Below, in pieces: positions 5,880-24,632 of a stretch of DNA of 64,000 bases. A model generated the notes under the pieces. That model was not told where the DNA came from, did no database searches, and saw only the letters and a program-made list of their open reading frames with translations. The stretch is from Alphaproteobacteria bacterium (GTDB lineage: Bacteria; Pseudomonadota; Alphaproteobacteria; Bin95): contig CBDBGH010000003.1 in the NCBI GenBank assembly GCA_965205265.1, positions 3,808,001 through 3,872,000 on the forward strand, given 5' to 3'. Within the stretch, counting starts at the first letter, position 1. Every line of letters begins with the position of its first letter. The translations under genes and the position numbers were made by a program.

Positions 5880-5894
5880 CCCTTCCCGCCCCGG

Positions 5895-6956: not shown

Positions 6957-7000
6957 GCCGTGTCTTCCCTCATCGCTGTTTCCGGCGAATGCAGCCGCCG

Positions 7001-7357
7001 TCAAGCGGCGGGGCGGCGGCCGGCAATCGCCTCGCGGAGGCCTTCGAGCAGGCCTTCCAGCCGCGCCTGCCCGTGCTCCACCGCCCGCAGCCGCCCTTCG
7101 ATCCCGTCGAGACGCCTGTTTGTGTCGTCGATGCGTGCGCCGAGGCGGTTGTTGACCTCGTCGATGCGGGCGCTGAGACTCTTGTTGACCTCGTCGATGC
7201 GTGCGCCGAGGTTCTTGTTGACCTCGTCGATGCGCCTGTTGGTCTCGTCGATGCGGGCGCCGAGACGCTCCTCAAGCCGCGAGTTGCTGCGCAGCAGCAG
7301 CGCCGCGACGGCGATGAGGATAGCGGGCGTAAGCCAAGCGGACAGTTCCAGCGGCAT
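7001..7357 (-). CDS. small N-terminally membrane-anchored coiled-coil protein with 11-aa (ARIDEVNKNLG) repeats
   Basis: 118 aa. Hydrophobic N-terminus WLTPAILIAVAALLL followed by hendecad repeats. GGAAAGG RBS. Confidence 0.75.
   Translation of the reverse strand: MPLELSAWLTPAILIAVAALLLRSNSRLEERLGARIDETNRRIDEVNKNLGARIDEVNKSLSARIDEVNNRLGARIDDTNRRLDGIEGRLRAVEHGQARLEGLLEGLREAIAGRRPAA
7110..7270. repeat. 33-bp coding tandem repeat (TTGACCTCGTCGATGCG core)
   Basis: About 4-5 imperfect units encoding the RID-E/D repeats. Confidence 0.8.
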
Positions 7358-7549
7358 GGACGACCTTTCCTTCGGCGAGGGAGTGTGCCCCCAACGGAGC
7401 GCGCCGGCAAGAGGCCGCCTGTACCCGCGCGCCTTTTGCATTTCGCGGCCGGCTGGATTATGGCAGGGGTTCCGCCGCGTGCAACGCGGCGAACTGTTAT
7501 GAATGGCGGCGTTATGCGCCGCCGCGGGAACGGGAGGGGGCGCTTCCCC

Positions 7550-8530
7550 ATGAACGCGACCAACATGCGCAAGGTGCTCTGCGTGCAGGGCATGCCGAAG
7601 GCGGGGCTCGACCTGTTCGCGGCCCGCGACGATATCGAGGTCGAGATCGTCCGTGAGGGCCCGGGTTTCGACCTCCGGGCGCATCTGGGCGATATCCACG
7701 GGATCACGCTGTTCGGCACGCCCTACACGCGCGAGCTGATCGCGGCCACGCCCAATCTGGAAGTCTGCTCGCGCTTCGGCGTCGGCTTCGACTCGGTCGA
7801 TGTGCCGGCGCTGACCGAGCGCGGCGTGCCGCTGATGGTCGCCGGCACCGCCAATTCGGTGACCGTGGCCGAGCACGCCATGTTCATGATGCTCGACCTC
7901 GCCAAGATGGCGCGCCAGTACCATGCGGGCGTGGCGGCCGGGAATTTCGGCGTGCGCAACGAGTATTCGGCGCTCGACCTCTACGAGAAGCGGCTCTTGT
8001 CGGTCGGCTTCGGGCGCATCGGCTCGCGCACGGTGAAGCGCGCCGTCGCCTTCGAGATGGACGTGCAGGTGTATGACCCCTATGCGGACCCGGCGGCCGT
8101 GCGCGCGGCGGGCGCGGAGCCGGTGGACGACCTCGACGCGGCGCTGGCGGAGGCGGATTTCGTCACCATCCACTGCCCGCGCAACGAGGAGACCTACGGC
8201 CTGATCGGCGCGGAACGGCTCGCGCGCATGAAGCCCACCGCCATCATCGTCACCACGGCGCGCGGCGGCATCGTCAACGAGGCCGCGCTGATCGAGGCGC
8301 TGCGGAACCGGACCATCCTGGCCGCCGGCATCGACGTGTTCGACCCCGAGCCGCCGCTGCCCGGCAACCCGCTCTTCACCATGGACAATGTGCTGCTCTC
8401 GCCCCATTCGGCGGGCGTGACGCGGGAATCGATGGACCGCATGGCCATGGTCACCTGCCAGAATGTGATCGACGTCTTCGACGGCAGGCCCGTGCCTGCC
8501 CATGTGGTCAACAGGGAAGTCCTCGGCTAA
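7550..8530 (+). CDS. D-isomer-specific 2-hydroxyacid dehydrogenase (SerA-like)
   Basis: RFGVGFD, VAEHA, GFGRIG, ARGGIV, IDVFDPEP and SPHSAG motifs. Confidence 0.9.
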   Translation: MNATNMRKVLCVQGMPKAGLDLFAARDDIEVEIVREGPGFDLRAHLGDIHGITLFGTPYTRELIAATPNLEVCSRFGVGFDSVDVPALTERGVPLMVAGTANSVTVAEHAMFMMLDLAKMARQYHAGVAAGNFGVRNEYSALDLYEKRLLSVGFGRIGSRTVKRAVAFEMDVQVYDPYADPAAVRAAGAEPVDDLDAALAEADFVTIHCPRNEETYGLIGAERLARMKPTAIIVTTARGGIVNEAALIEALRNRTILAAGIDVFDPEPPLPGNPLFTMDNVLLSPHSAGVTRESMDRMAMVTCQNVIDVFDGRPVPAHVVNREVLG

Positions 8531-8544
8531 GGAACGCAAGGAAC

Positions 8545-9339
8545 ATGCGCAAGAACAACGTCCTCGAAACCTGGAAGGCCGGCGGCGCGGTCGTCAATGG
8601 CTGGCTCGCGATCCCGAGCGGCTTCTCCGCCGAGGTCATGGCCGGCTGCGGCTGGGACAGCGTCACCATCGACCTCCAGCACGGCATGGTCGATTACACC
8701 GCCGCCGTGCCCATGCTGCAGGGCATCTCGCTCTCCGACGCCACGCCCATGGCGCGCGTGCCGTGGCTGGAGCCCGGCATCATCCAGAAGCTGCTCGACG
8801 CCGGCAGCTACGGCATCATCTGCCCGATGATCAACACCCGCGAGGAATGCGAGCTGCTCGTCGCGTGCTGCAATTACGCGCCCAAGGGCTCGCGCAGCTT
8901 CGGCCCGATCCGCGCCGTCATGTATGCAGGGGCCGATTACGGCCGGCACGCCAACGACACGGTGCTCGCGATCGCGATGATCGAGACGCAGCAGGCCATC
9001 GACAATCTGGACGACATCCTGTCCACGCCCGGCCTCGACGGCATCTATGTCGGCCCCTCGGACCTCTCGCTCTCGCTCGGCCACGCGCCGCAGCTCGACA
9101 CCGAGGTGCCGGAGGTGGTGGCGGCCATCGACACCATCCTCGCCGGGGCGAAGAAGCACGGCGTGCCGGCCGGCCTGCATTGCGGCTCGCCGGAATACGC
9201 CGCGCGGATGTTCGAGAAGGGCTTCCAGCTCGCCACCATCGCCAATGACAGCCGCCTGATGGCGGCAGGCGCCACGGCCGCGGTCGCCGCCCTCAAGGGC
9301 AAAATGGCCGACAGCAACATCTCCGGCAGCCCTTACTGA
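8545..9339 (+). CDS. HpcH/HpaI aldolase family protein
   Basis: IDLQHG, MIET and YVGPSDL motifs. Confidence 0.9.
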   Translation: MRKNNVLETWKAGGAVVNGWLAIPSGFSAEVMAGCGWDSVTIDLQHGMVDYTAAVPMLQGISLSDATPMARVPWLEPGIIQKLLDAGSYGIICPMINTREECELLVACCNYAPKGSRSFGPIRAVMYAGADYGRHANDTVLAIAMIETQQAIDNLDDILSTPGLDGIYVGPSDLSLSLGHAPQLDTEVPEVVAAIDTILAGAKKHGVPAGLHCGSPEYAARMFEKGFQLATIANDSRLMAAGATAAVAALKGKMADSNISGSPY

Positions 9340-9423
9340 GTGGCCAGGGGCCAGTGGATAGTGGTTAGCGGTTGGCAGACCGCGACGAAACGCTATCCAC
9401 TAGCCACCATCTACTGACCACTA
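9339..9423. repeat. inverted array of 7-bp repeats (AGTGGNN) between convergent genes; probable bidirectional terminator
   Basis: AGTGGCC-AGGGGCC-AGTGGAT-AGTGGTT-AGCGGTT, a spacer, then ATCCACT-AGCCACC-ATCTACT-GACCACT. Confidence 0.7.
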
Positions 9424-9654
9424 CTCCGCGGGCGCAGCGGGCCGTTCGTTGCGGCCGACGATATAGGCTTCGAGGAAGTCCATCTTGCCTTCGAGCCGGC
9501 TCAGCCGGTCGCGGATTTCACGCATCTCCGCCTCGAAACCGTCCATGCGGGCGTCCAGCCGGTCCATACGGCCGCCGAGGCTTTGCTGTCCTTTCAGGAC
9601 GATGCCCGCCAGCGCAATGCCGACGCCAAGGATCGCAATCAGTTCGGGGGTCAA
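9421..9654 (-). CDS. small membrane-anchored coiled-coil protein (paralog of 7001-7357 and 54881-55123)
   Basis: TTG 9654 behind a GGAGG RBS (alternative ATG 9690). TPELIAILGVGIALAGIVL helix followed by a heptad coiled coil. Confidence 0.7.
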   Translation of the reverse strand: MTPELIAILGVGIALAGIVLKGQQSLGGRMDRLDARMDGFEAEMREIRDRLSRLEGKMDFLEAYIVGRNERPAAPAE

Positions 9655-9756
9655 GGATGTCCTCCCCAGCCACATGTTGCCGGCCGTCATGCGACCTTGC
9701 CGCGACCTGCGCCGGCAATCAAGGGAAATCCCTGCCCGCCCGGTCAGGGCTCCGCC

Positions 9757-10305
9757 CTATTCCGCCTTCCTGCGGTCCAGCAGGGCGGCGGCGAGCGCGG
9801 CGAGGCCGGGGGCGGGCTGGCCGGCGGCGAGCGCCTTGTCGCGCGAGCGCTCATGCACCGCCACCCCGAGCACCGCGAGCGCCACGCCCCACATGGCGCT
9901 GAGCGAGGCGGCCGCCGCCAGGATCGCCGGCGCGTCGGTCGGGTGCGCCATCACCGCCCAGGCGATGGCGGCCATCTGCAGCGCCCAGGCGGCCGTCACC
10001 GCATAGCCGAAGGTCGGCCGCCAGCGGCGCACATAGGCATCTTCCGTGCGGGTCTCGGCGCGCATGGTGGCGTTGACCTCGCGCAACGCGGTCTCGGCCT
10101 CGCGCGAGCGCGCCTTCACCTCGATGCGCCGGTTCGCGGCGTCGAGCGCTTCCGGGGCGACGCCGCCGTTCCTGAGCACGCCGTCCACCTCGCGCAGCGC
10201 CTTGGCGGCGGCATCGGCGGCCGGATTGTCGAGCGCCTCCAGACCTGCGCCCGCGAGGCGCGCGATCAGCGGCAGCCCGATCTGGGCGAGAAGTGCGGGA
10301 ATCAT
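9757..10305 (-). CDS. 3TM-type holin-like protein
   Basis: VNATMRAE...YVRRWRPTFGY followed by hydrophobic helices and LGVAVHERSRDK, as in GTA_holin_3TM-like proteins. Last gene of the virion operon. Confidence 0.75.
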   Translation of the reverse strand: MIPALLAQIGLPLIARLAGAGLEALDNPAADAAAKALREVDGVLRNGGVAPEALDAANRRIEVKARSREAETALREVNATMRAETRTEDAYVRRWRPTFGYAVTAAWALQMAAIAWAVMAHPTDAPAILAAAASLSAMWGVALAVLGVAVHERSRDKALAAGQPAPGLAALAAALLDRRKAE

Positions 10306-10319
10306 GGGTTCGTCCTTCT

Positions 10320-11780
10320 TCAGATGCGGAAATTGCTGCGGGCGCGGCCGGGCCGGGCGCCCCGCCGCCAGTCATTGCGGGGCGCGGGGCTCACCGGCGA
10401 AAGCCGCCATGGCTCCGCCAGCAGCGCGCCCGCCGCCGCGTCCAGCCCGTCGTCCCGCCCCCTGCCCTCGGGCCGCCATTCCCGCAATTCGCGCAGGAAG
10501 GGGGTCTCGAACACGCTCGCATGGGCGGAAAGCCTGCCCGCGGCCAGCGGCGCGTCGAAGGCTTCCAGAATGCGCTCATGCTTCGGGCGGTGGTTCTTTT
10601 TCTCCACCACCGACGCACCGTGCCCTTCCCGGCCGAGCTCTCCCTTCAGAATACCCGGCAGGAAGATCCCGACTCCGTTCGCTTCCACATAGACGACCGG
10701 CAGGAACAGCTCTCGCACATGCGCGGCCATCCGGCGGCAAAGCTGCGTCGCCGCGTCCTCGGAGTCTTCCGGTTCGCGATGGATATAGGCGACCCGGTGC
10801 AGCAGCCGCCGGCCGAGATCGTCGGTGAAGACGGCCGCCAGCACATTGGCGTCGCCCTTCTCCCGCTTGCCGTAGGCCGGGTCCCACCAGCCCGAGGCGG
10901 AAACCAGCCGCCGGCCTTCCAGCCACAATTCCGGCCGGCCGCCGGCCTCCCTGTATTCGAGCTCGCCCTCGTAACGGCGCAGCCAGTCCGCGTTCAGCCG
11001 GCCCTCCACCGCCTGCACGGGCTCCAGCAGCATCTGGCTCTCATAACGCGCGGGGCCTGTATGACGGCGGATTTCCGCAATCGCCGGCGACGGGTAGCGC
11101 GCCGGCCAGGACGCCTCGCGAAGCGGCTCCTCCTTCCGCCGGAAGCCCCAGAGGAAGGGCCGCTTCTCGTCCTCCTCCGGCCGCGGGTCTTTCGCATAGA
11201 TGGAGTAGTAGCTGTGCGGCGTGCCGCTGTAGATCCGGAAGCCGCCAGGGCTCAGCACATAGTCGATCTCGGAGAGCCGGGCGCGCAGGTCGGCCCGCTT
11301 CGCCGGCGTGCCGCAGGTGTTCGGCACCTCGACATCGTCGCAGATCACGACATCGGCATGCGCGCCGGTGATATTGGCGCCGATGCCGCGCGCCAGCAGC
11401 GAAGGGTCGCGCGAAACGGTCTTGCGCGAAACGGTCAGCCGGTCGGCCGCCCATTCCTCGGCCAGTTTCGGGCGCAGCGCCCCGGTGTCGGGATGGCGCT
11501 CCAGAATGCGGCGCACGGTGCGCACCATTCTGGCGGCGAGCGGCGTCTCCGCCGACAGCACCAGGATGCGCCGGTCGGGATCGCGCCTGAGCATCCACGC
11601 GGACAGCAGGCCGAGCAGGGTCGATTTGCCCGCGCCCCGGAAAGCCATCAGCAGCATTCGGCGCGCGCCCTCTGCGATCCGCCCGTCGAGCCATCCGGCA
11701 ATGCGCCGGTGGAGCGCCGGCGTCGCGATCCTCTGGGTCCGGTTCCAGGCGTCGAGGAAAGAGGAGAAGGTCGTGTCCAT
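10320..11780 (-). CDS. phage terminase large subunit
   Basis: Walker A AFRGAGKST, Walker B ICDDVE, coupling motif GTPH, and nuclease motifs WDPA, VEANG and DDGLDA. AAGGGAGG RBS before ATG 11780. Confidence 0.92.
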   Translation of the reverse strand: MDTTFSSFLDAWNRTQRIATPALHRRIAGWLDGRIAEGARRMLLMAFRGAGKSTLLGLLSAWMLRRDPDRRILVLSAETPLAARMVRTVRRILERHPDTGALRPKLAEEWAADRLTVSRKTVSRDPSLLARGIGANITGAHADVVICDDVEVPNTCGTPAKRADLRARLSEIDYVLSPGGFRIYSGTPHSYYSIYAKDPRPEEDEKRPFLWGFRRKEEPLREASWPARYPSPAIAEIRRHTGPARYESQMLLEPVQAVEGRLNADWLRRYEGELEYREAGGRPELWLEGRRLVSASGWWDPAYGKREKGDANVLAAVFTDDLGRRLLHRVAYIHREPEDSEDAATQLCRRMAAHVRELFLPVVYVEANGVGIFLPGILKGELGREGHGASVVEKKNHRPKHERILEAFDAPLAAGRLSAHASVFETPFLRELREWRPEGRGRDDGLDAAAGALLAEPWRLSPVSPAPRNDWRRGARPGRARSNFRI

Positions 11781-11836
11781 CGAACCTCCCTTGAATGGTG
11801 GATAGCGGCCGGCGGTCAGCGCTTCCCGGCCGGCGT

Positions 11837-12016
11837 TCAACGCCGGAGCGCGTCGATCTTCTCCGCCAGCACGGCGAGCGCGCGCGTATTGGCGACGATG
11901 ACGTCGAGCACCAGCTGGCGGCCGCGGGCATCGCGGTGCAGCAGCCAGACGGCAAGGCCCCAGCCGAGCGCGAGCGGCCCGTATTCGGCGAAGACCCTGA
12001 GCGCGAGCGTGTCCAC
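11837..12016 (-). CDS. small single-TM holin-like protein (BhlA/UviB-like)
   Basis: 59 aa: YGPLALGWGLAVWLL transmembrane segment then a coiled tail. Fills the gap in the virion operon. RBS is weak. Confidence 0.5.
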   Translation of the reverse strand: MDTLALRVFAEYGPLALGWGLAVWLLHRDARGRQLVLDVIVANTRALAVLAEKIDALRR

Positions 12017-12026
12017 GGGCCGCCCG

Positions 12027-12443
12027 TCAGCCGGTTCGCCGCGGCGCGCGAAGCGCGAGCAGCCCGCCCGTCCGGCGCAGGAGGCCCAGCCGTTCGAGCC
12101 GGTCTGCATGGGCGCTGTCGGCCCGGAGCGAGGCGAGGCGCCGCGAGGCGGCCGCCCCCGCATGACGGCCCTCCCGCTCGCTTTCGGCGGCAAGCCCGCC
12201 CAGCAGCGCGGCGGCCGAGCCGGCGTCGGAGCCGGTGCCGGCCGCGCCGAACCGGGCACGGGCGCGGGCCAGCGCCTGCTTCAGCCGGCGCCGCCGCAGG
12301 CGTTCGCGCTCGGCGGCGCCGGCGCGGACATCGGCGGCCTGCGCGCCCGCGGCGGCGCGGCGCCGGGAGGCCGCCTCGGCGGCGGAGGCTTCGGCGAGCA
12401 GGGCATTGCCCGCCGCCAGGGCTACGGGGAGAAGTGCGCTCAT
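12027..12443 (-). CDS. Ala/Arg-rich helical virion protein (putative small internal/ejection protein)
   Basis: Overlaps the tail tube B stop. ARARFGAAG..GSAAALL motif. Same position as podoviral small internal virion genes. Confidence 0.55.
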   Translation of the reverse strand: MSALLPVALAAGNALLAEASAAEAASRRRAAAGAQAADVRAGAAERERLRRRRLKQALARARARFGAAGTGSDAGSAAALLGGLAAESEREGRHAGAAASRRLASLRADSAHADRLERLGLLRRTGGLLALRAPRRTG

Positions 12444-14317
12444 ATGTCTGTCACCTTGAGTTCGGTTGCAGCGGAAAGGAGGTGGAAGGGAAGCGGGCTC
12501 TCATCCTCGATGCGCCAGAGCGGGGCCGCACCGTCGCGCCGCCAGCCGCCCGCGCCGAGCGAGACATCGCCGGTGAAGGCGCCGTCGCCGAGCGCGGCCC
12601 GGCGGAAGCCGAAGCCCGTGTCGCAGCGCAGCGCGCGGGTGCGGTCGAGACGGAGCGCCAGCCGCACCGCCCGGTGGGCCACGCCCTGCATCGCGCCCCG
12701 CGCAAGCTGGACGCCGGGCGGGAGCGGTTCGACCGTGTGGGTGAAGGGAAGCCCCGCCTGGACGGCGCGCGCCGGCGCGTCGAGCTGGATGCGCCCGCCG
12801 GAGACCCGGAGGCCCGAAAGCGCCTTGCCGTCGGCGACGGCGGCGACCTCCCGGCCTTCGAGATGGGCGAGGCCGCCCCAGGAGCGGGTGGGGTTCGCCG
12901 CCGTTCCGGCGACCGCGGCGTCCAGGCCGAGCGCCTCGTCGAAGCGCTCGACCGAATAGCGCCCGTCGCGCTCTACCAGCGCCCAGGCCCGGCCGCCCGC
13001 AACCGCCGCCGACCGGAAAGTCCCGTCGGTCTCCAGCCGCGTCCAGGCATGCACGCCCTCGGCCCGCCAGAGCGTGAGCGCGGCGATGGACCCGTCGCCC
13101 ATGACGACCGACAGCCGCCGGGCCGCCTCGTCCCAGACGATCTCGACCGGCGCGGCGAACAGGTGGCTGGCCAGCAGCGCCAGGTCCTGCGCCCGGTAGG
13201 CGAGCTCGGCATCCGCAAACAGGAACTCGCGCAGCTCGCGCCCGTTGCGGGCCAGGAACATCACGGCGCCCTCGACATCCACCGGCCGGACGGCGCGGTC
13301 GGCGGGCGAGCCGATGCGCGTCTGGCGGCGAAGCTGGATCGAGGCGGGCGTGAGCGGGTCGCCGGAGACGGTCCATTCCGCGCCCGAGGTGAATATCTGC
13401 AATTGCCGCCCGGACATGACCGCACGCACCGCATTCGCCTGGTCCGCCAGCAGCGGGAAGGCGATGGCCTCGTCGTCCAGCCCCTCGCCGGGGTCGAAGT
13501 CGAAATAGGCGCCCGAGCGTGAAAGCCAGAGCCGGTCCGGCAGCGAGCGCGATCCGCCGATCGCCAGCCTGTCCTGGTGGAACACGACCGAGACCGGCCA
13601 GCCGCGCCGGGCCGAAAAGGCAGGCTCCTGCCAGTCCGCGGTCGCCGCCGTGCCGCCCGCAAGCGTGCCCGTGACATCCGCCTCGGCCTCCGTCGCGGAG
13701 ACGACCCGGACGATCCGGACTTCGTCCTTGCCGATCCGGAAGGGCTGGCCCGCATCCCCCGCCGCGAAGACGCCGGCCGAGGCGGTGAGCCGGACGCGGC
13801 CCGAAGCCGCCGAGGCGGCCAGCGTCACCGAAGACGCGGCATAGCGGTGGTAGGGCTGCATCGACCGCCCGCCCCGCTCGGCCCATTCCCAGGGCGCGAT
13901 CCGCCAGTCGTCCTGCCCCCGGCGCGCCACGGTTCGCGGCGAATAGTCGGGATGGACGACCAGCAGCGTGTCGGCGGTCTGCGTCCAGTTGAGCCCGGCC
14001 AGATCGGCTTCCTTCCAGGGCGCGGCGACGAGCGCCGTCCGGACGCCGTTCCTGTAGATCCGGAGCGCCCGGTCGGTGAACAGCAGCAGGTAGCTCTCTT
14101 CCGTGTTGAACTCGAAGGCGGCGAGCCGGCCGGGGCCGGGCGCGGCCTCGACGAAGGCGAGCCCCGGCCGCCGCGAAAGCCCGCCCGTCGGGTGGACGGT
14201 GACATTGCGCAGCCGGCGCGCGCCGTCGCGATAGGCCGCGAGGTCGGGCCGTCCGGCGAGGCGCGGGCCGAGCTCGCCCGCGCTGAAATTGGTCTTGAGC
14301 GTGTTGATCCGGGTCAT
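12440..14317 (-). CDS. podoviral tail tubular protein B / nozzle (T7 gp12-like)
   Basis: N-terminal TNFSAGELGP..GR.D, NV.V.PTGGL.RRPG, and GWP..V.FHQDRL..GG...PD.LWLSRSG beta-propeller motifs. 625 aa. Confidence 0.82.
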   Translation of the reverse strand: MTRINTLKTNFSAGELGPRLAGRPDLAAYRDGARRLRNVTVHPTGGLSRRPGLAFVEAAPGPGRLAAFEFNTEESYLLLFTDRALRIYRNGVRTALVAAPWKEADLAGLNWTQTADTLLVVHPDYSPRTVARRGQDDWRIAPWEWAERGGRSMQPYHRYAASSVTLAASAASGRVRLTASAGVFAAGDAGQPFRIGKDEVRIVRVVSATEAEADVTGTLAGGTAATADWQEPAFSARRGWPVSVVFHQDRLAIGGSRSLPDRLWLSRSGAYFDFDPGEGLDDEAIAFPLLADQANAVRAVMSGRQLQIFTSGAEWTVSGDPLTPASIQLRRQTRIGSPADRAVRPVDVEGAVMFLARNGRELREFLFADAELAYRAQDLALLASHLFAAPVEIVWDEAARRLSVVMGDGSIAALTLWRAEGVHAWTRLETDGTFRSAAVAGGRAWALVERDGRYSVERFDEALGLDAAVAGTAANPTRSWGGLAHLEGREVAAVADGKALSGLRVSGGRIQLDAPARAVQAGLPFTHTVEPLPPGVQLARGAMQGVAHRAVRLALRLDRTRALRCDTGFGFRRAALGDGAFTGDVSLGAGGWRRDGAAPLWRIEDESPLPFHLLSAATELKVTDI

Positions 14318-14874
14318 GCCCTGGCCTCGATCAGCGGGAAACGGAGCGGCGCGCGCGCCGGGTCCTGGAGCGCGTCCGTGCGCCGGGCGCGGCGAAGCGC
14401 TGTGTCCGCCAGCCGCTGAAGCGCCTCCGCGCGGGACGTATTCTCCGTCACCGGCAGGCAGAGGGCGGCGGCGAGATGGGCGGCGAGCGCATCCGCGAAC
14501 CAGGGCGGGAACTCCGCCTCCCCGGCGCGGAAGACATAGGCGAGCCGGAGCGGGGCCGTATGGGCATGCAGCCTGCCGCCGGCGATGCGCCAGCCGGTTT
14601 CGCGCCCCTCCCCCACGGCCAGCGCATTCAGGAAACCGGCCGGCAGCCGGAAGGCGTGCGCGAAGCCGTCGAGCGGCGCCTCCGCCGCCGGCGAAAGCTC
14701 CGCCTCTGCCGTGGCGAAGCGCCAGGCATGGCCCGCAAGCAGCGTGTCGCGGAGGGTCGGATAGAGCGCGGCGGCGGTGCGCGCCTCGAGGGTCGCCTCC
14801 GCGAAGTCGGAAATCGGGAGCGCACCGAGCCGGACGAGCGCCTGGCTCGCGATCTGGACGGCGGTCAGCGCCAT
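14314..14874 (-). CDS. podoviral tail tubular protein A / adaptor (T7 gp11-like)
   Basis: QIASQALVRLGA.PI, LLAGHAWRFA and FPPWFADALA..LA motifs. AAAGGAGA RBS. Confidence 0.82.
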   Translation of the reverse strand: MALTAVQIASQALVRLGALPISDFAEATLEARTAAALYPTLRDTLLAGHAWRFATAEAELSPAAEAPLDGFAHAFRLPAGFLNALAVGEGRETGWRIAGGRLHAHTAPLRLAYVFRAGEAEFPPWFADALAAHLAAALCLPVTENTSRAEALQRLADTALRRARRTDALQDPARAPLRFPLIEARA

Positions 14875-14953
14875 GAGGGACGTCTCCTTTCTGGAATATG
14901 CGGGGATGGCGGATGGCGGCCGGTGGACATGCCGTCCACCGGCCGCCGGTCCG

Positions 14954-15313
14954 TCAGGCCGCCAGCACGCCGACCCGTTCGAGCGCGCGGATGACCGCGT
15001 TGACGGCGGTGCGCGCCTCGGCATCGACGGTTGCCCCGCCGGCCGCGTCGGCCACCGCCGCCTGGGTCTCCCAGTCGGTGGTGAAGCCGACCCCGACATT
15101 GCCGTTGCGGTTGGACGACACGCGGACCAGCGCCGCGCTGTCGTCCGCGCCGTTCAGCGCCAGCATGTCGCCGGGGCGGAGCAGGTCGGCGGCGCCGTTG
15201 AAATAGCCGGCCGCGGTCATGTCGCCGTCGGCGTCCTCGGCGGACTTGTAGTGCCAGAAGGTGAAGCCGTTGGCATAGGCCAGCACGGAGAGGTTTGCGG
15301 ATTTGAACGCCAT
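14954..15313 (-). CDS. putative capsid decoration / head fibre protein
   Basis: Immediately after the capsid gene with a strong RBS. LSVLAYANGFTFWHY..GYFN N-terminus and a C-terminal DAEARTAVNAVI.AL...G.LA trimer-like motif. Confidence 0.55.
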   Translation of the reverse strand: MAFKSANLSVLAYANGFTFWHYKSAEDADGDMTAAGYFNGAADLLRPGDMLALNGADDSAALVRVSSNRNGNVGVGFTTDWETQAAVADAAGGATVDAEARTAVNAVIRALERVGVLAA

Positions 15314-15341
15314 TGCTCGGGCGGTCTCCTTTCTGTTCCGG

Positions 15342-16160
15342 TCAGTTCTCGAGGCAGCGCATGGTCACGACGCCCTCGGCGTCGATCAGCACGGCGCCCT
15401 GGCTCATCCAGTTGGCGACGAACCAGGCGGCGCGGTCGCCATGCCAGGTGATGTCGGTGGTGACTTCCGCGCCGGCGGCGTGGCCGACCGCGCTCTTGTG
15501 GTACCAGTGGCAGAGCCGGACCGAGTTGCTGAGCGTCAGCCCCGAATGCGGCAGCCAGAGCGTGCCGAGCCAGCGCTTGGCCTGGGTGCCGCGCCAGGGC
15601 AGGTCCTCCGCGCCGACATAGTCGGCATTGGCGAACTCCTCGATCTTCATGAGGTCCGACCACTGCTTCCAGCCGATGACGGCCGTGCGCTCGCCGTCGT
15701 CCGGCACGTCGGCCTGGCCCAGCATCTCGAAGGCGGTGAGCACCTTGTCCTTCGTCAGCCCGTCCGTGTCGGTGCCGGCATGGTTGGTCGAGCCGTCGAG
15801 CGCGGCGGCGATGAGCTGGTCGGTCTTGCGGCCGAGCGCATAGGCGCCGGCCTTGGCGACCGTGTCGCGCTCGCCGCCGCCGATCTTGAGGTCGTCGAGC
15901 CGGTCCACCCACTCGCCGGCATAGTAGTCGCGGAGATTGCACTCGACCGCGGCGTGATCGACATTCATCACCGGGATCTGGCCGTGCCGGGCCTTGGTGG
16001 CGGCGGCGCCGCGCCCGACCTTGCGGAAGGTCACGCTGGAGCCCATGACGCCGCGGCGGGTGCGCACCGTGTCGCGGAGCTTGGAGCCCTGGCGCTGATA
16101 GGCGTTGTGGACTTCGCCTTCGAACGCCTTGATGAAGGAAGGGGAAAGATCGACGGGCAT
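15342..16160 (-). CDS. major capsid protein (HK97 fold, podoviral type)
   Basis: F...F..EVH.AYQRQGSKLR.TVR, AYALGRKTD.LI and MSQGAVLID.EGVV motifs. Follows the scaffold gene. AGGAGG RBS. Confidence 0.85.
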   Translation of the reverse strand: MPVDLSPSFIKAFEGEVHNAYQRQGSKLRDTVRTRRGVMGSSVTFRKVGRGAAATKARHGQIPVMNVDHAAVECNLRDYYAGEWVDRLDDLKIGGGERDTVAKAGAYALGRKTDQLIAAALDGSTNHAGTDTDGLTKDKVLTAFEMLGQADVPDDGERTAVIGWKQWSDLMKIEEFANADYVGAEDLPWRGTQAKRWLGTLWLPHSGLTLSNSVRLCHWYHKSAVGHAAGAEVTTDITWHGDRAAWFVANWMSQGAVLIDAEGVVTMRCLEN

Positions 16161-16212
16161 ATTGCCTGTCCTCCTGTTGTGGTTTCAGGGTTTACTGTGT
16201 GCCGGCCCTTTG

Positions 16213-16899
16213 TCAGGCCGGGCGGTCGTCGGGATTGTCCGTCCCTTCGCCCGGATAGAGGCGCCGGTAGCCCTCCATCACCTGCCGGACGAGGACGGGG
16301 TCGCGGTCGCGCCAGTAGCGGGGGTCGCCCTGGAGGCGGCGCAGGCCGTCGAGCGTCGCCGCTCCGGCCGCCCGGTCGCCGTCGCGGCCGCCGAGGCCGG
16401 GCTCGCCCGCATCCATCAGCCGCTCCAGCGCCACCGCGCCTTCGACCGAGCCGATGAGCGCGTCGCCCACGCCGGCGGGCAGGTTGGCCGCCGCCCAGGC
16501 CTCCATCTGGCCCTTCGCGCGCCGCCAGCCGTCCTCGCCGCCATAGCGGTCCGCGAGGCGGGCGTCGCGCTCGGCCCGCTCCAGCTCGCCCGCGACCTCG
16601 CCTGCCAGCGGCAGCAGCAGCGACGACGCCATGTCATAGACGAGCTGGACCTGACCGTTGGTGAAGCCGGCCTCGTGCATCCGTCGGTTGGCTTCCGCGT
16701 CCGGGCCGCCGATCAGGCCGTCCAGCTCGAGCCGATAGTCCTCCGGGCTCGCGGGCGGGCGCTCCGCCGAGGCCAGGGCTCCGTAGGCCCCGACCAGCTC
16801 GTCGAGACGCACTTGGCCGGCGTCGGCGTCCCAGAACTCGTCCGGCAGGCCGTCCGGGCGAACCGGCGCCTCCATTTCGGTTTCGTTGTCCGTTTCCAC
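16213..16899 (-). CDS. capsid assembly scaffolding protein
   Basis: RPDGLPDEFWD, P.SPEDY, GFTNGQ and DPRYWRDRDP motifs. Acidic. Lies between portal and capsid. GAAGGAGA RBS. Confidence 0.75.
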   Translation of the reverse strand: METDNETEMEAPVRPDGLPDEFWDADAGQVRLDELVGAYGALASAERPPASPEDYRLELDGLIGGPDAEANRRMHEAGFTNGQVQLVYDMASSLLLPLAGEVAGELERAERDARLADRYGGEDGWRRAKGQMEAWAAANLPAGVGDALIGSVEGAVALERLMDAGEPGLGGRDGDRAAGAATLDGLRRLQGDPRYWRDRDPVLVRQVMEGYRRLYPGEGTDNPDDRPA

Positions 16900-16937
16900 G
16901 GTGCGGTGTCTCCTTCATGTCTTCGGAGTGAGGGGTT

Positions 16938-16972
16938 GAAAGAAAACGGGCGGCCCCCGGAGGAGCCGCCCG
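16938..16972 (-). terminator. intrinsic terminator inside the virion operon, after the portal gene
   Basis: Minus strand reads CGGGCGGCTCC-TCCG-GGGGCCGCCCG followed by TTTTCTTTC. Confidence 0.75.
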
Positions 16973-17000
16973 CGCGGGAATTGCGGTGCGGTTCGCCTCG

Positions 17001-18446
17001 TCAGGCGGCGCCGGGCAGCAGGTCCGGCGGCTCCAGCAGGGCGGGCGGCACGCCGAGGCGGGTGCCGAGCCAGCGCGCGGCGCGGCCGGTATCGACGGCG
17101 GCCAGCGCCCCGGGCCCGAGCCCCGCCACGGCGCCCAGCCAGGTGAGCGCCGCCCCCGCCTCGCGCCGCCCGGCCGCCTGCGCCAGCGGCGAGCGCAGCC
17201 GGAGCCCCGCTTCGCGCCCGTCAAGCGCGAAGGCCGGGACCTCGCCGCGCCGGGCGAGGATGGAGAGCGCGCGTCCGATCAGCGGCGTCAGCAGCTCGGA
17301 CTCCAGACGCCCGTAGGTCGCGCCGAGCAGCCGCGCCGTCTCCGCCGAGCGCTCCAGCACCTCGGTCGCGGTCATGGCCGGGCTCGCGGGCTCGGCCAGC
17401 CGGTCGGCGAGCAGCGCGTGGCGGATGCGTTTGCGCAGGTCCTCCAGCACGAGCTGCGACACGTCGAAACGCCCCGGTGCGGCAAGCGGCGTCAGCCCCG
17501 CCGAGCCCACCGCCTTCGGCATGACCGCGCCCGGCACCAGCTCCACCGCCGTCGGGTCGAGCACGCCGTCATCGTCGGCCTGCCAGATGCCGGTCGCGGC
17601 GATCGAGGCGTTCTTCAGGATGAGCTCCACCACCTTGTCGGCGGTCTTGATATCGGGCAGCGCCTTCATCACCGGCGAGCGCCCATAGACCTCGCCCGGC
17701 GCCTTCAGCCAGCGGAAGCAGATGAAGGGCGAGACCGCGAAGCGGCCCTCCGCCAGCATTTGCGCCGCCCGGCCGCCGCCGCCTTCCAGCACCGCCAGAT
17801 AGCGGTAGCCGGCGCCCTTGAGTTCGGGCGCAACGCCCTCCACGACGCCGAACGGGCCTTCGCCGGAAAGAACCGGCGCGCGGGGAAAGCGGGCGCGGAG
17901 CGCGGCCGGGCCGAGCTCCCGCCGCCGCCACACCCGGTCGAGCCGCCCTTCCGGCCCCTCCTCCAGCACCGCTTCGCGAAGCGGCACGGCGGTGAAGCGG
18001 AAGGCCGAGGCTGCGCCGAGCGCGCTTTCCTCGAACAGCAGGCAGCCCGTGCCCAGCGCCACGAGGTCCAGCAGCGCCTGGTGCATCTCGACCGCAAAGG
18101 CGGAGCGGTCCAGATGGCCCTGCAGGGCCTCGGCCGCCATGTCCAGCATCTCGGCGCTTTCGGGACCCGCCTCCTGTCCCGGCTCGAAGCCGACCCAGCG
18201 CTCGAAGGGCGGCGTGAGTTCGGCGAGCAGGCTGGCGGCAAGCTGCTCCGCGGCGTCGGCGGCGGTGGCGTCGTAGATGCGCCCGGCGGCGCCGGCGCCG
18301 CCATCGCCATTGACCGCCCCACCCGTCCCGTAGGGAAGGGCATGGGCCGCGCAGTCGCGCCAGAGCGCCTCCCAGGGACGCCGCCGGGCCTCGGCGCGGC
18401 GGTAGCCCGCCAGCAGAACCTCCGGATCCGGTGTTTCGGCAATCAT
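17001..18446 (-). CDS. podoviral portal (head-to-tail connector)
   Basis: IYDATA..A...LAA.L...LTPP...W, DLVALGTG, RW.K.PGEVYGRSP...ALPDIK and MTATEV.ER motifs. Confidence 0.9.
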   Translation of the reverse strand: MIAETPDPEVLLAGYRRAEARRRPWEALWRDCAAHALPYGTGGAVNGDGGAGAAGRIYDATAADAAEQLAASLLAELTPPFERWVGFEPGQEAGPESAEMLDMAAEALQGHLDRSAFAVEMHQALLDLVALGTGCLLFEESALGAASAFRFTAVPLREAVLEEGPEGRLDRVWRRRELGPAALRARFPRAPVLSGEGPFGVVEGVAPELKGAGYRYLAVLEGGGGRAAQMLAEGRFAVSPFICFRWLKAPGEVYGRSPVMKALPDIKTADKVVELILKNASIAATGIWQADDDGVLDPTAVELVPGAVMPKAVGSAGLTPLAAPGRFDVSQLVLEDLRKRIRHALLADRLAEPASPAMTATEVLERSAETARLLGATYGRLESELLTPLIGRALSILARRGEVPAFALDGREAGLRLRSPLAQAAGRREAGAALTWLGAVAGLGPGALAAVDTGRAARWLGTRLGVPPALLEPPDLLPGAA

Positions 18447-18450
18447 GTGT

Positions 18451-18465
18451 GTTCCCTTCATGTTC
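18451..18465 (-). promoter_or_regulatory. alphaproteobacterial LexA (SOS) box overlapping the portal RBS
   Basis: GTTC-CCTTCAT-GTTC, an exact GTTC-N7-GTTC, 4 nt upstream of ATG 18446. Confidence 0.7.
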
Positions 18466-18515
18466 TAGACCATCCTACCCCATGTTTCTGATTTGTTAAC
18501 CCAGCGCGAGAAACG

Positions 18516-18938
18516 TTACCCATTATCGAGGAGGAAATCGTGCAACTGGCCGGGCGTAAGCACCCGCCAGGAGGCAATTCCGAGCACCCGCTTGGCCACT
18601 TCGACGCAGGTGGCGGGCAAGAGCGGCGCCGGGCGGAAGCGCCGCCGCCGCCGTGTCTCGACCACGGTGAAACCCCGCTCGCGGTAGAACCCGGCAAGGT
18701 CGAAGGCCGCCGGCACGGGCTGCACCGCGACATCGGTATAGCCGGCCAGCGGATCGACCGTGATCCAGCGCCCCGCCTCCTCCAGCGCGACGAAGCAATG
18801 GCGGAACCCCGGCCGGAGCAGCCGGAGCCAGCCGAGGTCCGCCTTGCCGGAAAACACCGCGAGCGCCCGCCCGCCGCCATTCGTAACGTTCGCCGCGTTG
18901 CGCGCGGCTGCGCCGTTGTGCCCGGAACTGCCCGTCAT
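18516..18938 (-). CDS. conserved hypothetical protein of the phage-like cassette (possible permuted papain/NlpC-like fold)
   Basis: WLRLLRPGFRHCFV and TCVE..KR.LG......TP.QL motifs. Overlaps the stop of the upstream gene. Confidence 0.65.
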   Translation of the reverse strand: MTGSSGHNGAAARNAANVTNGGGRALAVFSGKADLGWLRLLRPGFRHCFVALEEAGRWITVDPLAGYTDVAVQPVPAAFDLAGFYRERGFTVVETRRRRRFRPAPLLPATCVEVAKRVLGIASWRVLTPGQLHDFLLDNG

Positions 18939-19303
18939 GCCGCGGCCCCCCGGCGTCCGGAGCCGCCGCCGGCAACGATCCCCTTGGCGCGCAGCAGCTC
19001 CTCCAGCCGCGCCATGCCCTCTTCCCAGAGCCGGGCGAGCGGGCCGTGCGCCGGAGCTTCGAGGCGGCGGCCGAACCCGGTCAGCACCTGCAGGTGCCGC
19101 CGGGTGAGCACACCGGGCTTTACCAGCCGGCGCAGGCAGGCCAGCATGTCGAGCGGCGTGCAGGGCCGGCCACGGCCCTCATGGCCCGGCACGCCGCCAT
19201 CCTCGACCACGAGGCGCCAGGACATGAACCAGAACCAGGCTTCTTCGGCGTTCCTGAACGGCTTTTCGCCGCCGGAGCCTCGCGAAAAATCGGGAACAGG
19301 CAT
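18935..19303 (-). CDS. conserved hypothetical protein, candidate activator/antiterminator of the cassette
   Basis: PF.NAEEAWFWF...RPC.P.D...L.RL...LW.E.M.RL...LRAKGIV. First gene of the operon, divergent from the repressor. Function is inferred. Confidence 0.65.
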   Translation of the reverse strand: MPVPDFSRGSGGEKPFRNAEEAWFWFMSWRLVVEDGGVPGHEGRGRPCTPLDMLACLRRLVKPGVLTRRHLQVLTGFGRRLEAPAHGPLARLWEEGMARLEELLRAKGIVAGGGSGRRGAAA

Positions 19304-19316
19304 GAATCCCCCATCT

Positions 19317-19331
19317 GTTCTTTGAATGTTC
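19317..19331 (-). promoter_or_regulatory. alphaproteobacterial LexA (SOS) box
   Basis: GTTC-TTTGAAT-GTTC, 13 nt upstream of ATG 19303. Confidence 0.7.
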
Positions 19332-19396
19332 CGATTTTGCCTATGTGGTCAAATTCCTAGTGCATGTCAAGCGGATTTGTGCCTATGATGAATTCC

Positions 19397-20026
19397 ATGC
19401 TGACCCATTCCGAAGTCTGGGCCGCGATCGACGCGCTGGCGGACCATCACGGCCTGTCGGTATCCGGGCTCGCCAAGCGGTCGGGGCTGGATGCCACCAC
19501 TTTCAACCGCAGCAAGCGGACCACCAGGGGCGGGCGGCCGCGTTGGCCCAGCACGGAGAGCATCTCCAAGGCGATGGCGGCGACCGGCTGCGGCGTTTCG
19601 GGGCTGTTTGCCGAGCAATTGCGCCGCGAGGGCGCGCCGGCGAGTACCATCCCGGTGATCGGCCACGCCCAGGCGGGCCTCCACGGCTATTTCGACGATG
19701 CCGGCTACCCGGTAGGCGCGGGATGGGACGAGGTCGCTTTCCCGGACCTCGGCGACCCCAACGCCTATGCGCTGGAGATCGCGGGCGACAGCATGGAGCC
19801 CGTCTATCGCGACGGGGATATCGTGGTGGTCTCGCCGGCGGCCAGCCTCCGGCGCGGGGACCGCGTGGTGGCGCGCACCCGCGAGGGCGAGGTGCTGGCC
19901 AAATGGCTCGGCCGGCTGGGCGCGCGGCGTATTGAGCTGCATTCCTTCAATTCCGACCATGAGGACTACGTCCTCGCTCGAAGCGACCTCGACTGGATCG
20001 CCCGTATCGTCTGGGCCAGCCAGTAG
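19397..20026 (+). CDS. HTH + S24 peptidase (CI/LexA-like) repressor
   Basis: MLTH..VW.AID.LA...GLS.SGLA..SGLD.TTFN.SKR HTH, AQAG autocleavage site, GDSMEP catalytic Ser and VLAK catalytic Lys. Confidence 0.9.
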   Translation: MLTHSEVWAAIDALADHHGLSVSGLAKRSGLDATTFNRSKRTTRGGRPRWPSTESISKAMAATGCGVSGLFAEQLRREGAPASTIPVIGHAQAGLHGYFDDAGYPVGAGWDEVAFPDLGDPNAYALEIAGDSMEPVYRDGDIVVVSPAASLRRGDRVVARTREGEVLAKWLGRLGARRIELHSFNSDHEDYVLARSDLDWIARIVWASQ

Positions 20027-23991: not shown

Positions 23992-24378
23992 CTATGCGGC
24001 CCGGATATCGGTCTGCGGGAAGTCGCCGCCCTTGAACAGCAACGGCTCGCCGGTGGTGCTCGCAAGCGCATAGGCGAAGCAATCGCCGAAGTTCAGCGCG
24101 GCCGGATGGTTGCCCCTGCCGAAGCGCCGCCAGGCCTGCCGGGCCGCTTCCATCTGCTCCCCCGTCACCGGCACCGCCTCGATCCCGGCGCGCGCCAGAA
24201 CAACATCGAGCTCATGCCCGGCCGCCGCGCCGCCGCGGCCCTCCACCACCATGCATGCCTCCAGAATGTTGGCGACCGACATGCGGCAATTCGGGGCGGT
24301 GAGCATCGCTTCCTCATAGCGCTCGGCATCGCTCTCTCTGTTCACAACCGCAATCAGGGCCGAACTGTCGACGATCAC
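23992..24378 (-). CDS. vapC: VapC PIN toxin
   Basis: IVDSSAL and LNFGDCFAYA..LLFKGGDF motifs. Confidence 0.92.
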   Translation of the reverse strand: MIVDSSALIAVVNRESDAERYEEAMLTAPNCRMSVANILEACMVVEGRGGAAAGHELDVVLARAGIEAVPVTGEQMEAARQAWRRFGRGNHPAALNFGDCFAYALASTTGEPLLFKGGDFPQTDIRAA

Positions 24379-24632
24379 CTCGGCAATCCCCGCTCGTCAT
24401 AGAGGAAATCGCCAAGCTCAACCGCCGAAGGACCGGGTCCCATCAGCTTGGCGCAACGCTCCGCTGCGGCGCGCAGATCCCGGCGCCGCTCTTCAATGTC
24501 GCGCGTCCGCCTTTCCCGCTCCAGCCGTTCCCGCAGCGCTACGGTTATGGCGCCGGTCTTGGTCTCGCCGGTCAACCGGGCCAGTTCGGCAGCGAGCCGG
24601 CAGGTTTCCTCGTTCTTGATATTGAGGCTCAT
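24375..24632 (-). CDS. vapB: VapB antitoxin (Rv0623-like)
   Basis: MSLNIKN...LA.LTGE.KT.AI..AL and LYDERGLP motifs. Confidence 0.9.
   Translation of the reverse strand: MSLNIKNEETCRLAAELARLTGETKTGAITVALRERLERERRTRDIEERRRDLRAAAERCAKLMGPGPSAVELGDFLYDERGLPR

Follow-up and report, generated by a model that had tools for sequence, protein, structure and literature searches.

Background

Only a few independent domestications are known to have given rise to gene transfer agents (GTAs). The RcGTA-type elements of Rhodobacter capsulatus and Caulobacter crescentus (Rhodogtaviriformidae) are clusters of head, tail and terminase genes that lie in an alphaproteobacterial chromosome without integrase or replication genes. 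They are vertically inherited, evolve under purifying selection and are controlled by the host; the control of RcGTA is of the CtrA/GafA type. To our knowledge, none of the well-studied alphaproteobacterial GTAs (RcGTA and those of Caulobacter and Bartonella) is T7-like. Here we describe a T7-like gene cluster in a 64-kb stretch of an alphaproteobacterial genome (assembly GCA_965205265.1, contig CBDBGH010000003.1, positions 3,808,001 to 3,872,000). This whole stretch is called the window below, and the 5.7-Mb genome that contains it is designated G000. An initial annotation of the window, made from its letters alone, had proposed a GTA derived from a podovirus.

The cluster resembles the RcGTA-type elements in its gene content, chromosomal position, vertical inheritance and purifying selection, and host regulatory control is predicted for it from box motifs. 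Its holin belongs to the same Pfam family (GTA_holin_3TM), and its DNA-entry machinery is likewise incomplete, which would fit ComEC-dependent uptake. However, the ancestry of the two is unrelated: the cluster has a T7-type short-tail gene set, whereas the set of RcGTA is HK97-type and siphovirus-like. In addition, the genome with the cluster lacks the RcGTA marker GTA_TIM, the two did not co-occur in 401 genomes, and, unlike RcGTA, the cluster has a local S24 repressor together with LexA-type boxes.

Several other elements are relevant for comparison. FpGTA of Faecalibacterium prausnitzii is described as the first podovirus-like GTA-like element (PMC12946183). Compared by description only, the two are alike as GTA-like elements inferred to be podovirus-like; FpGTA, however, belongs to Firmicutes and occupies two loci, whereas the cluster is alphaproteobacterial and T7-type, occupies a single locus and is spread over many families. 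The capsid-portal clusters of Rickettsiales and Holosporaceae (PMC9254644) are homologous to RcGTA and represent a different element.

Among phages, Pelagibacter phage EXVC031P Hodr (OQ414635.1) has the same local order of capsid, small gene, tubular protein A, tubular protein B and small internal protein. Its record, however, is circular, 34 kb long and includes about 60 genes with a large early-gene block, whereas the cluster spans about 10 kb without these. The small internal protein of Hodr is followed by genes for proteins of 783 and 1247 amino acids (aa), in the presumed position of gp15/gp16 (a role suggested by their size and place), and the cluster differs in this respect too.

Finally, capsid-forming phage-inducible chromosomal islands (cf-PICIs) and other satellites are small chromosomal elements with their own capsid and packaging genes and a switch controlled by the SOS response or by a repressor. 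In these respects the cluster is similar to them, its switch being a predicted one. Satellites carry an integrase, att sites and replication genes and have a sporadic, strain-level distribution; none of this was found for the cluster, whose distribution is clade-wide. Our literature search returned no description of a conserved T7-like cluster or GTA in Alphaproteobacteria; subscription journals lay outside its coverage, and a prior description is possible.

On balance we favour the following interpretation, which is drawn from sequence data. The cluster probably descends from a T7-like podovirus of the pelagiphage-Hodr lineage, of which it is a remnant that is now fixed in the chromosome and inherited vertically. 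It would have kept just those genes that are required for making a DNA-filled short-tailed particle and for cell lysis, and would encode an SOS-induced, GTA-like viriform that arose independently, from a podovirus. A single old domestication of T7-like virion, packaging and lysis genes, followed by vertical descent and occasional loss, fits the data. If this is correct, the cluster represents a major new lineage of virus-derived cellular machinery, present in 69 of 401 genomes in which RcGTA markers were not found, and particle production in these organisms is tied directly to the SOS response. It would also account for a block of "prophage" predictions, now counted as viruses by virus-mining pipelines, in Roseomonas, Magnetospirillum, Azospirillum, Geminicoccus and gut alphaproteobacteria. 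Several carriers have been cultured, so the proposal is directly testable.

Results and discussion

Conserved gene order and distribution of the cluster

As the initial annotation had it, the cluster consists of 12 co-oriented, tightly packed open reading frames (ORFs) on the minus strand (9757-19303) with a divergent S24 repressor gene on the plus strand (Table 1). Of the T7-like virion module, the portal, capsid, tubular proteins A and B and large terminase are all present. Each cluster gene is single-copy in G000. The G+C content at third codon positions (GC3) in the ORF listing and GC3 screen is 0.84-0.93 for the cluster genes against 0.85-0.94 for the flanking metabolic genes, which agrees with the earlier statement that the composition is that of the flanks.

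Using the window proteins as tblastn queries, we obtained one and the same gene order in 18 of 18 fetched regions: S24, 122-aa gene, 140-aa gene, portal, scaffold, capsid, small gene, tubular A, tubular B, gp14-like gene, large terminase (TerL), holin. The portal was matched in 27 of the 41 genomes of relatives, including all 16 congeners, all four genomes of the sister genus g2 and two of four genomes of g3. Several of these matches in metagenome-assembled genomes (MAGs) are cut by contig ends, and the match in congener G001 is only a 45-residue fragment. Among 37 genomes of the order, the capsid was matched in 13 of 16 genomes of the window genus (g1), 10 of 10 of g2 and 3 of 10 of g3, where the matches are just 29-31% identical. 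Within the window genus capsid identity is 91-99%; portal identity is 80-95% within the genus and 56-64% in other genera.

A capsid search over contigs from one genome per species gave 102 relatives, and 80 loci were kept (54-72% identity). They come from Geminicoccaceae, Roseomonas and allies, Paramagnetospirillum/Magnetospirillum, Phaeospirillum, Tagaea, Algihabitans, Roseospirillum, Caenispirillum and gut-derived alphaproteobacterial MAGs. Sufficient flanking DNA for judgement was available for 58 loci. The full order with a divergent S24 gene was found in 49 of them, including loci of Geminicoccaceae, Roseomonadaceae, Magnetospirillaceae and gut MAGs. The other nine comprise three ordinary clusters stretched by insertions, three clusters truncated at the 5' side (one of them adjoining an integrase) and three divergent elements, whose capsid is related but whose portal and tail genes are unlike those of the cluster. 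The initial annotation had suggested S24 and alkA as anchors of synteny. The former is conserved in these 49 loci, but alkA adjoins the cluster in just one other locus, that of congener G010, and does not belong to the conserved unit.

In an even sample of 401 alphaproteobacterial genomes, a capsid match at E<=1e-40 was found in 69, which represent about 45 family codes (row count); 68 of the 69 have a single match. Several carriers have genomes of 0.9-1.4 Mb. The RcGTA marker GTA_TIM was found in 32 of the same 401 genomes, with zero overlap with the 69 capsid carriers; kin are not independent, hence no P value is given for this non-overlap. In G000 itself GTA_TIM (PF13547) was unmatched, the Caulobacter control being positive. 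A sporadic distribution had been named at the outset as evidence to the contrary; across the congeners, g2 and the class sample the distribution is clade-wide.

In one g2 genome the capsid match lies in two adjacent pieces in different frames (G046:C21 236387-237197, residues 2-181 and 180-271), which suggests a frameshift or an assembly error.

Vertical descent and selection

Two checks proposed in the initial annotation, congruence with the species tree and dN/dS, were carried out. RpoB was extracted from the same genomes, where it was recovered for 28 of the 30 named handles and for three of the five G handles, and a tree of concatenated portal, capsid, tubular B and TerL was compared with the RpoB tree for 29 taxa. 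Locus L040 was excluded as atypical, and L039 and L072 were excluded for having fewer than three of the four genes. The two trees share 14 of 26 splits; 1000 label permutations gave a mean of 0.23 shared splits and a maximum of 3. Patristic distances in the cluster and RpoB trees are correlated with r=0.915 and a slope of 1.56, and none of 2000 Mantel permutations gave a correlation as high. For the same genome pair within the genus, the capsid is 91% and RpoB 86% identical.

The flanks, too, are syntenic within genera. The HpcH flank is common to five congeners. In Roseomonadaceae, the coverage of the left flank is at least 0.82 in 10 of 12 species, and that of the right flank is 0.27-0.91 in 12 of 12. 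Flank conservation is patchier in Geminicoccaceae and in the gut group.

Selection was assessed by median pairwise dN/dS (Nei-Gojobori method, NG86; pairs with dS<2) in the window genus and in eight Roseomonadaceae. The values for cluster genes are 0.13-0.40 in the window genus, against 0.08-0.12 for flank genes, and 0.09-0.27 in Roseomonadaceae (Table 1), i.e., the cluster is under purifying selection. The value for tubular A in the window genus is unusable because the called start is too long. GTAs and viriforms are characterized by inheritance along the host lineage together with purifying selection, and both were found here. The view of the initial annotation that this is a domesticated T7-like structural module and not a decaying prophage is supported: every test aimed at its refutation that could be run came out in its favour.

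Mobile-element and phage-replication functions

In accordance with the initial annotation, no integrase, att repeats or replication genes were found in the window. Tyrosine recombinase genes are absent from it; of 58 matches to this family in G000, the one closest to the cluster lies 15.7 kb to its left, within a repeated element. The search for flanking direct (att-like) repeats around the cluster gave nothing beyond imperfect GC-rich chance matches, and no tRNA lies in the window. The profile of T7-type RNA polymerase (PF00940) was unmatched in the genome; its control was also silent everywhere, so this negative is weak. An integrase hidden Markov model (HMM), for which 30 recombinase domains of G000 itself were used, matched only four of 99 scanned sequences (98 loci and the window), and two of these four are the mobile element that split the portal gene of congener G008. 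None of the small cluster ORFs matched a TerS family in Pfam, PHROGs or NCBIfam, which agrees with the lack of a recognisable TerS noted earlier. What was found is the general property of GTAs and viriforms: structural and packaging genes derived from a phage, without functions for self-replication or integration.

These results bear on the possibility that the cluster is a helper-dependent satellite or a defective prophage that is still able to pass between cells and for which a complete T7-like phage would supply replication, core proteins and, in the window genus, fibres. We consider this improbable. A module without TerS, gp15/gp16 and, in the window genus, fibres would suit such a life, one real prophage, L040 (see below), has a capsid that is 69% identical, and the IMG/VR pipelines score the cluster as viral. 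Nevertheless, integrase, replication and excision genes as well as att repeats were not found, the syntenic position is fixed within genera, and one congener retains a remnant of an in-situ deletion. Moreover, the cluster tree is congruent with that of RpoB, and there is one copy per genome in carriers that include genomes of 0.9-1.4 Mb.

Phage and viral relatives

The searches turned up no complete phage equivalent of the cluster. In 50,697 phage records the capsid had 100 matches, every one of them under 60% identity; the highest values are those of an unannotated 5-kb fragment from faeces (51%) and of the nearest isolated phage, Pelagibacter phage Hodr (44.5%). IMG/VR contains 37 relatives, all on contigs of at most 15.9 kb, and the cluster genes have the same order in 36 of them; many are 12.5-13-kb predicted proviruses that extend from the 122-aa gene to just beyond TerL. 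In the capsid tree, which is the result of a quick search and has long phage branches, 32 chromosomal sequences are split from four phages by a 99% branch, with Hodr as the nearest (sister) phage.

Locus L040, on a contig of a Ferrovibrio terrae MAG (120-17017), is one of the three divergent elements mentioned above and is a real prophage. It has primase genes and a different terminase, which is placed before the portal gene. Its capsid is 69% identical to that of the window, and its portal and tail genes only 28-34%.

Regulatory sites and sequencing runs

The 60-bp gap between the S24 gene and the first gene of the operon contains an exact GTTC-N7-GTTC motif, which we take to be the alphaproteobacterial LexA (SOS) box. 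At the start of the portal gene, a promoter-like site is followed by a box of the same type (Table 1). Altogether there are three exact motifs of this type in the window, against about one expected by chance, and 120 in the 5.7-Mb genome. A motif of this type also precedes each of the two lexA genes of G000, at a distance of 71 and 81 bp from the family match.

The gap between the S24 gene and the first gene was surveyed in 37 loci hand-picked from about 100. The exact motif is present in 16 of them, in the window genus, G033, Roseomonadaceae, other Rhodospirillales-like lineages and gut MAGs; the spacers and the orientation of the motifs vary between loci. The promoter and box at the portal start were found in 10 of 10 loci of the genus (seven exact, three with one mismatch) and in none of eight loci of other clades.

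The product of the S24 gene is of the LexA/CI-like autocleavable type. It matches the LexA family TIGR00498 weakly (E=3e-7, under the cut-off), and its sequence has a GDSM serine motif, a downstream lysine and an Ala-Gly pair, as in self-cleaving repressors. Taken together, the LexA-type boxes and the S24 repressor point to induction by DNA damage.

The two lexA genes of G000 are full-length (G000:C3, 193357-196280 and 5303211-5303876), and each has its own GAAC-N7-GAAC box. The comEC gene is present in G000 directly beside the first of them.

Twenty sequencing runs contain part of the stretch, X24 barely covering it. In the sponge metatranscriptome X20, contigs of a 90-97%-identical relative lie over tubular B, over the portal and 140-aa genes, and from the 122-aa gene through S24 to the glycosylase gene. 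The flanking metabolic genes have a similar depth in X20, and the DNA run X7 looks alike; carry-over of DNA is therefore possible, and we draw no conclusion on transcription. In the DNA run X4, a 1256-nt contig identical to the window joins position 13141 back to 11726 (it "goes back 1416") and is without 12271-12430. This contig, over the junction of the gp14-like and tubular B genes, may be an assembly artefact or a rearranged variant.

Lineage variants, missing parts and decay

The cluster has an extended and a compact form. The extended form has 3-5 kb of additional DNA, located between the gp14-like gene and TerL, which encodes a 540-860-aa protein; it was found in g2, G033, L088 (Muricoccus), L045 (a Magnetospirillum-like locus) and others. 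The N-terminus of this protein matches T7-type fibre adaptors (phrog_1640, E down to 2e-31; weak PF03906), and pectate-lyase-like or GDSL esterase domains are found in the rest. Some lineages with the extended form also carry a Hydrolase_2 lysin after TerL. The compact form, without a fibre between the gp14-like gene and TerL, is that of the window genus, Geminicoccaceae and the gut group. The sister genus g2 has the fibre, hence the window genus lost it after the split from g2; this fibre-less genus is a natural experiment on which parts are still maintained by selection. There is no gp15/gp16-sized gene in any compact or extended form examined, and among the T7 internal core/ejection proteins only the gp14-like one was found.

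The missing parts were also searched for in the whole of G000. With fibres of four relatives, one Hydrolase_2 lysin and three small proteins as tblastn queries, nothing was found at E<=1e-3. The profiles phrog_1640 and PF07486 were unmatched in G000 as well, the phrog_1640 control being silent in every genome.

In some Geminicoccaceae, genes for a 135-aa and a 787-aa pectate-lyase-like protein follow S24 on its strand (L074, 3053-5992, minus strand). This flank is common to only 3 of 10 relatives. The 787-aa gene was considered as a candidate Geminicoccaceae tailspike; its product is without a T7 fibre adaptor and is similar to the fibres only from residue ~170 of the latter onward. It may be a relocated tailspike or unrelated.

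Three congeners have damaged clusters. In G001 (L199, G001:C215), HpcH, a portal stub of 40 residues, degraded leader genes and S24 are found at the same locus, i.e., the deletion took place in situ. The S24 gene of G001 (8850-9485, 88% identical) is intact despite this portal-to-holin deletion; it may have a role beyond cluster control, or the deletion may be recent. In G008 (G008:C1 ~762,000-791,100; L019, L030), an insertion of about 29 kb, with adjacent tyrosine recombinase genes at both ends, splits the portal gene, and tubular B is truncated to residues 320-625. In G016, TerL is split by an insertion sequence (IS).

Such damage raises the question of whether the cluster is a decaying, functionless prophage remnant that is conserved merely through recent common descent. 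The loss or disruption of the cluster in these 3 of 16 congeners, the loss of the fibre in the genus and the raised dN/dS of TerL would be in line with this. On the other hand, frames are intact and the gene order is the same across lineages whose RpoB is only 67-76% identical, dN/dS is well under 1 for every gene in two separate clades, GC3 is fully host-like, and the regulatory boxes are conserved. A mere remnant therefore seems to us highly improbable. Both this explanation and that of a satellite fit the evidence poorly.

Proposed mode of action

Our model of the domesticated cluster is as follows. As long as a cell is undamaged, the operon would be held off by host LexA together with the S24 repressor of the locus. 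DNA damage would lead to RecA-stimulated self-cleavage of both, which would switch the operon on in some cells. TerL, without a recognisable sequence-specific TerS, would then fill heads with any available cellular DNA, and the holin, perhaps with the 140-aa peptidase-like protein, would release the particles. In lineages with a T7-type fibre, particles would adsorb to kin, and the gp14-like protein would open the outer membrane. Because equivalents of gp15/gp16 are missing, the DNA would reach the periplasm only; a ComEC-type machinery would then import it, as in RcGTA. The lack of both a recognisable TerS and gp15/gp16 fits unspecific packaging and such periplasm-only delivery. A full-length terminase, a constrained fibre in most lineages, the gp14-like protein and the holin argue for a DNA-filled, cell-binding particle released by lysis.

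We tentatively extend this to a broader proposal, which we hold to be possible rather than probable. The cluster may represent a second, ancient and independent alphaproteobacterial GTA lineage of T7-like podovirus origin that is wired to LexA and the SOS response. It would be present in some 40 or more families on the Rhodospirillales side, including gut bacteria and very small genomes, and its distribution would complement that of RcGTA. With gp14-only entry and ComEC uptake, damaged cells would donate genome fragments to kin for recombinational repair.

A domesticated capsid particle could also serve a purpose other than transfer: kin-discriminating killing, SOS lysis with release of DNA, or a decoy or interference against T7-like phages. 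All the evidence for domestication applies equally to such a particle. The fibre-less clusters of the window genus, Geminicoccaceae and gut MAGs are still under purifying selection, ejection proteins of the gp15/gp16 type occur in no form, and the peptidase-like leader gene is conserved, all of which would agree with it. We nevertheless consider it rather unlikely. A full-length T7-type TerL is kept everywhere, which points to DNA packaging, and most lineages keep a constrained fibre with an enzymatic receptor-binding part and a gp14-like entry protein, which points to delivery into cells.

Several observations speak against the interpretation as a GTA-like viriform. The particle is predicted from its genes, and the GTA label is something that we infer. 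If the capsid is still T=7, the head holds far more than the 10-kb locus, unlike the small heads of classical GTAs. The true prophage L040 carries a 69%-identical capsid, and this capsid falls inside the chromosomal group, so either exchange with real phages occurs or phage relatives persist. It follows from L040 that capsid-only counts include some phages (3 of the 58 judged loci are of the divergent type). About half of the splits differ between the cluster and RpoB trees; those differing splits that were inspected are at short or poorly supported nodes. The identity of the LexA box rests on a consensus and the two sites upstream of lexA, and no box was found within -300..+60 of recA in G000.

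Other points of this kind concern the window genus, whose version of the cluster is the most reduced one. The cluster is lost or broken in G001, G008 and G016, and G005 has an IS between the scaffold and capsid genes; the dN/dS of TerL is raised to 0.40, against 0.16 in Roseomonadaceae. The deletions and disruptions in congeners together with this value mean that the element is dispensable and may be eroding in the genus. The fibre and the Hydrolase_2 endolysin were not found anywhere in G000 by tblastn or profiles. With these lost, the ancestral mode of adsorption may no longer be open to the particle, or the system may be in partial decay.

Gene models and family assignments

The features of the locus are collected in Table 1. 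The labels of portal, capsid, tubular proteins A and B, TerL and three-transmembrane (3-TM) holin in the initial annotation are borne out by Pfam, PHROG and NCBIfam matches. Its "small virion protein" can now be resolved as gp14-like: 13 of 27 aligned members of this family match Pfam T7_gp14 (best E=3e-8), although the window copy does not. The ORF of tubular A was over-called. Its first 75 residues are Arg/Pro-rich and overlap the preceding gene, and the start is probably the Met at residue 76. The start of the S24 repressor is probably about 8-11 codons downstream of the called one.

The "scaffold" label holds by position only. The gene has the same place in every cluster locus; its product has no family in Pfam, NCBIfam or PHROGs. 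The "decoration" protein after the capsid is unverified, and its window copy gave no tblastn match in Roseomonadaceae loci. The "holin-like" label, given to a called 140-aa ORF upstream of TerL, is likewise unverified. This ORF overlaps the gp14-like gene out of frame, and its C-terminal half is 85-94% conserved in the genus, unlike the N-terminal half. The more likely gene, an ORF of about 58 aa, has no family match, and a hydropathy scan flagged no TM segment in it; its positional counterparts match phrog_1193 weakly (E=1e-3) and phrog_31793.

A terminator-like hairpin lies downstream of the portal gene. The consensus scan gave four sites against 4.5 expected in shuffles, i.e., this candidate is weak, and the idea of anti-termination is speculation.

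The two leader genes offer uncharacterised conserved proteins for further study: a 122-aa four-helix protein and a 140-aa candidate peptidase family with about 1200 members. Neither has a match in Pfam, NCBIfam or PHROGs, and profile searches against PDB sequences with alignments A1, A2 and A3 likewise gave nothing significant. The alignment of the 122-aa protein (A2, 24 members) has 10 invariant columns. Its four-helix model (pLDDT 83, predicted local confidence) has no significant match in Foldseek searches of PDB (E<=0.001) or in BFVD; it is possible that the protein is a regulator or a substitute for TerS.

The 140-aa family has 1203 members, every one unnamed and without Pfam domains. His47, Cys48 and Cys111 are invariant in 31 sequences. 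The model (pLDDT 86) has no Foldseek match in PDB at E<=0.001. VIA-align relates it to the type VI secretion system (T6SS) wall hydrolase TseH (Z 7.3, root-mean-square deviation 3.5, 111 aligned residues), YiiX (Z 6.5) and a B. cereus cysteine peptidase (Z 5.8); Z values of about 6-7 are middling and common by chance. Three of the top five matches are one enzyme type, presumably permuted NlpC/P60-type enzymes with the catalytic His before the Cys, and this order fits the invariant residues. The 140-aa protein is thus a candidate permuted NlpC/P60 peptidase and a possible cell-wall hydrolase, which is to be taken as a lead and not as an assignment.

Table 1. Features of the cluster and its surroundings in the window, with median pairwise dN/dS
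Feature	Position	Strand	Evidence	dN/dS, window genus	dN/dS, Roseomonadaceae
3-TM holin	9757..10305	-	PF11351 GTA_holin_3TM E=2.2e-12; hydrophobic segments ~102 and 125-133	0.20	
T7-type large terminase TerL	10320..11840	-	NCBIfam termin_lrg_T7 NF033889, 359.8 bits vs cut-off 150; phrog_38 E=1e-71	0.40	0.16
Small ORF, ~58 aa, directly upstream of TerL	11837..12013	-	conserved half of called 140-aa ORF		
T7 gp14-like internal virion protein, 138 aa	12027..12443	-	phrog_418 E=6e-5		
Tail tubular protein B (nozzle)	12440..14317	-	phrog_376 E=7e-135; weak Pfam Phage_nozzle match	0.25	0.27
Tail tubular protein A	ORF 14314..15099, likely real gene 14314-14874	-	phrog_394 E=6e-42, residues 79-260		
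Small conserved 119-aa protein after capsid gene	14954..15313	-	phrog_18004 (PHROG without assigned function) E=2e-11		
Major capsid protein, 272 aa	15342..16160	-	PF19821 E=4.7e-80; phrog_3437	0.14	0.125
Putative scaffolding protein	16213..16899	-	placement between portal and capsid only	0.21	
Terminator-like hairpin between portal and scaffold	16946..16973	-	12-bp stem, 10 GC, T-rich tail; consensus scan		
T7-type portal (head-to-tail connector)	17001..18461	-	PF12236 E=3.6e-118; phrog_332	0.19	0.17
Promoter-like site TTAACA-16-TAGGAT, then GAAC-N7-GAAC box, at portal start	18499-18472; 18465-18451	-	exact motif		
Second operon gene, 140 aa, candidate permuted NlpC/P60 (YiiX/TseH-like) cysteine peptidase	18516..18938	-	invariant residues and predicted model	0.13	0.20
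First operon gene, 122 aa, conserved four-helix protein	18935..19303	-	no family match; 24-member alignment A2	0.31	
GTTC-N7-GTTC box (LexA/SOS box type) in S24/first-gene gap	19317..19331	.	exact motif		
S24 repressor, helix-turn-helix and S24 peptidase, LexA/CI-like autocleavable type	19364..20026	+	PF00717 E=1.5e-21	0.20	0.09
Tail fibre				gene absent	0.16
Flank gene HpcH				0.08	
Flank gene, luciferase-like				0.12	

Neighbouring genes and other observations

The cluster is surrounded by host genes. The left flank includes genes for HpcH aldolase, 2-hydroxyacid dehydrogenase and luciferase-like oxidoreductases; the right flank includes, among others, an HhH-GPD glycosylase, DUF6064, glutathione S-transferase (GST) and an AMP-binding enzyme. 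A gene for an 89-aa protein with an N-terminal hydrophobic segment and a coiled coil is situated between HpcH and the holin (9421-9690, minus strand). It has 11 copies in G000 that are 35-58% identical, and four congeners each have a copy between scaffold and portal, on the opposite strand (L014 10708-10950, L015 10756-10977, L019 10732-10953, L021 9155-9412). One possibility is that this small gene is mobile or has been recruited repeatedly.

About 4 kb to the right of the cluster, a PIN-domain gene (128 aa) with a preceding 85-aa ORF (23992-24632, minus strand) is likely a VapBC-type toxin-antitoxin pair. Among the 58 tyrosine-recombinase matches of G000, many are identical-scoring adjacent pairs or triplets at several sites, suggesting that a family of recombinase-trio mobile elements has expanded. 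G000 also has at least five copies of a 1.7-kb IS that is 88% identical to the insert in G005.

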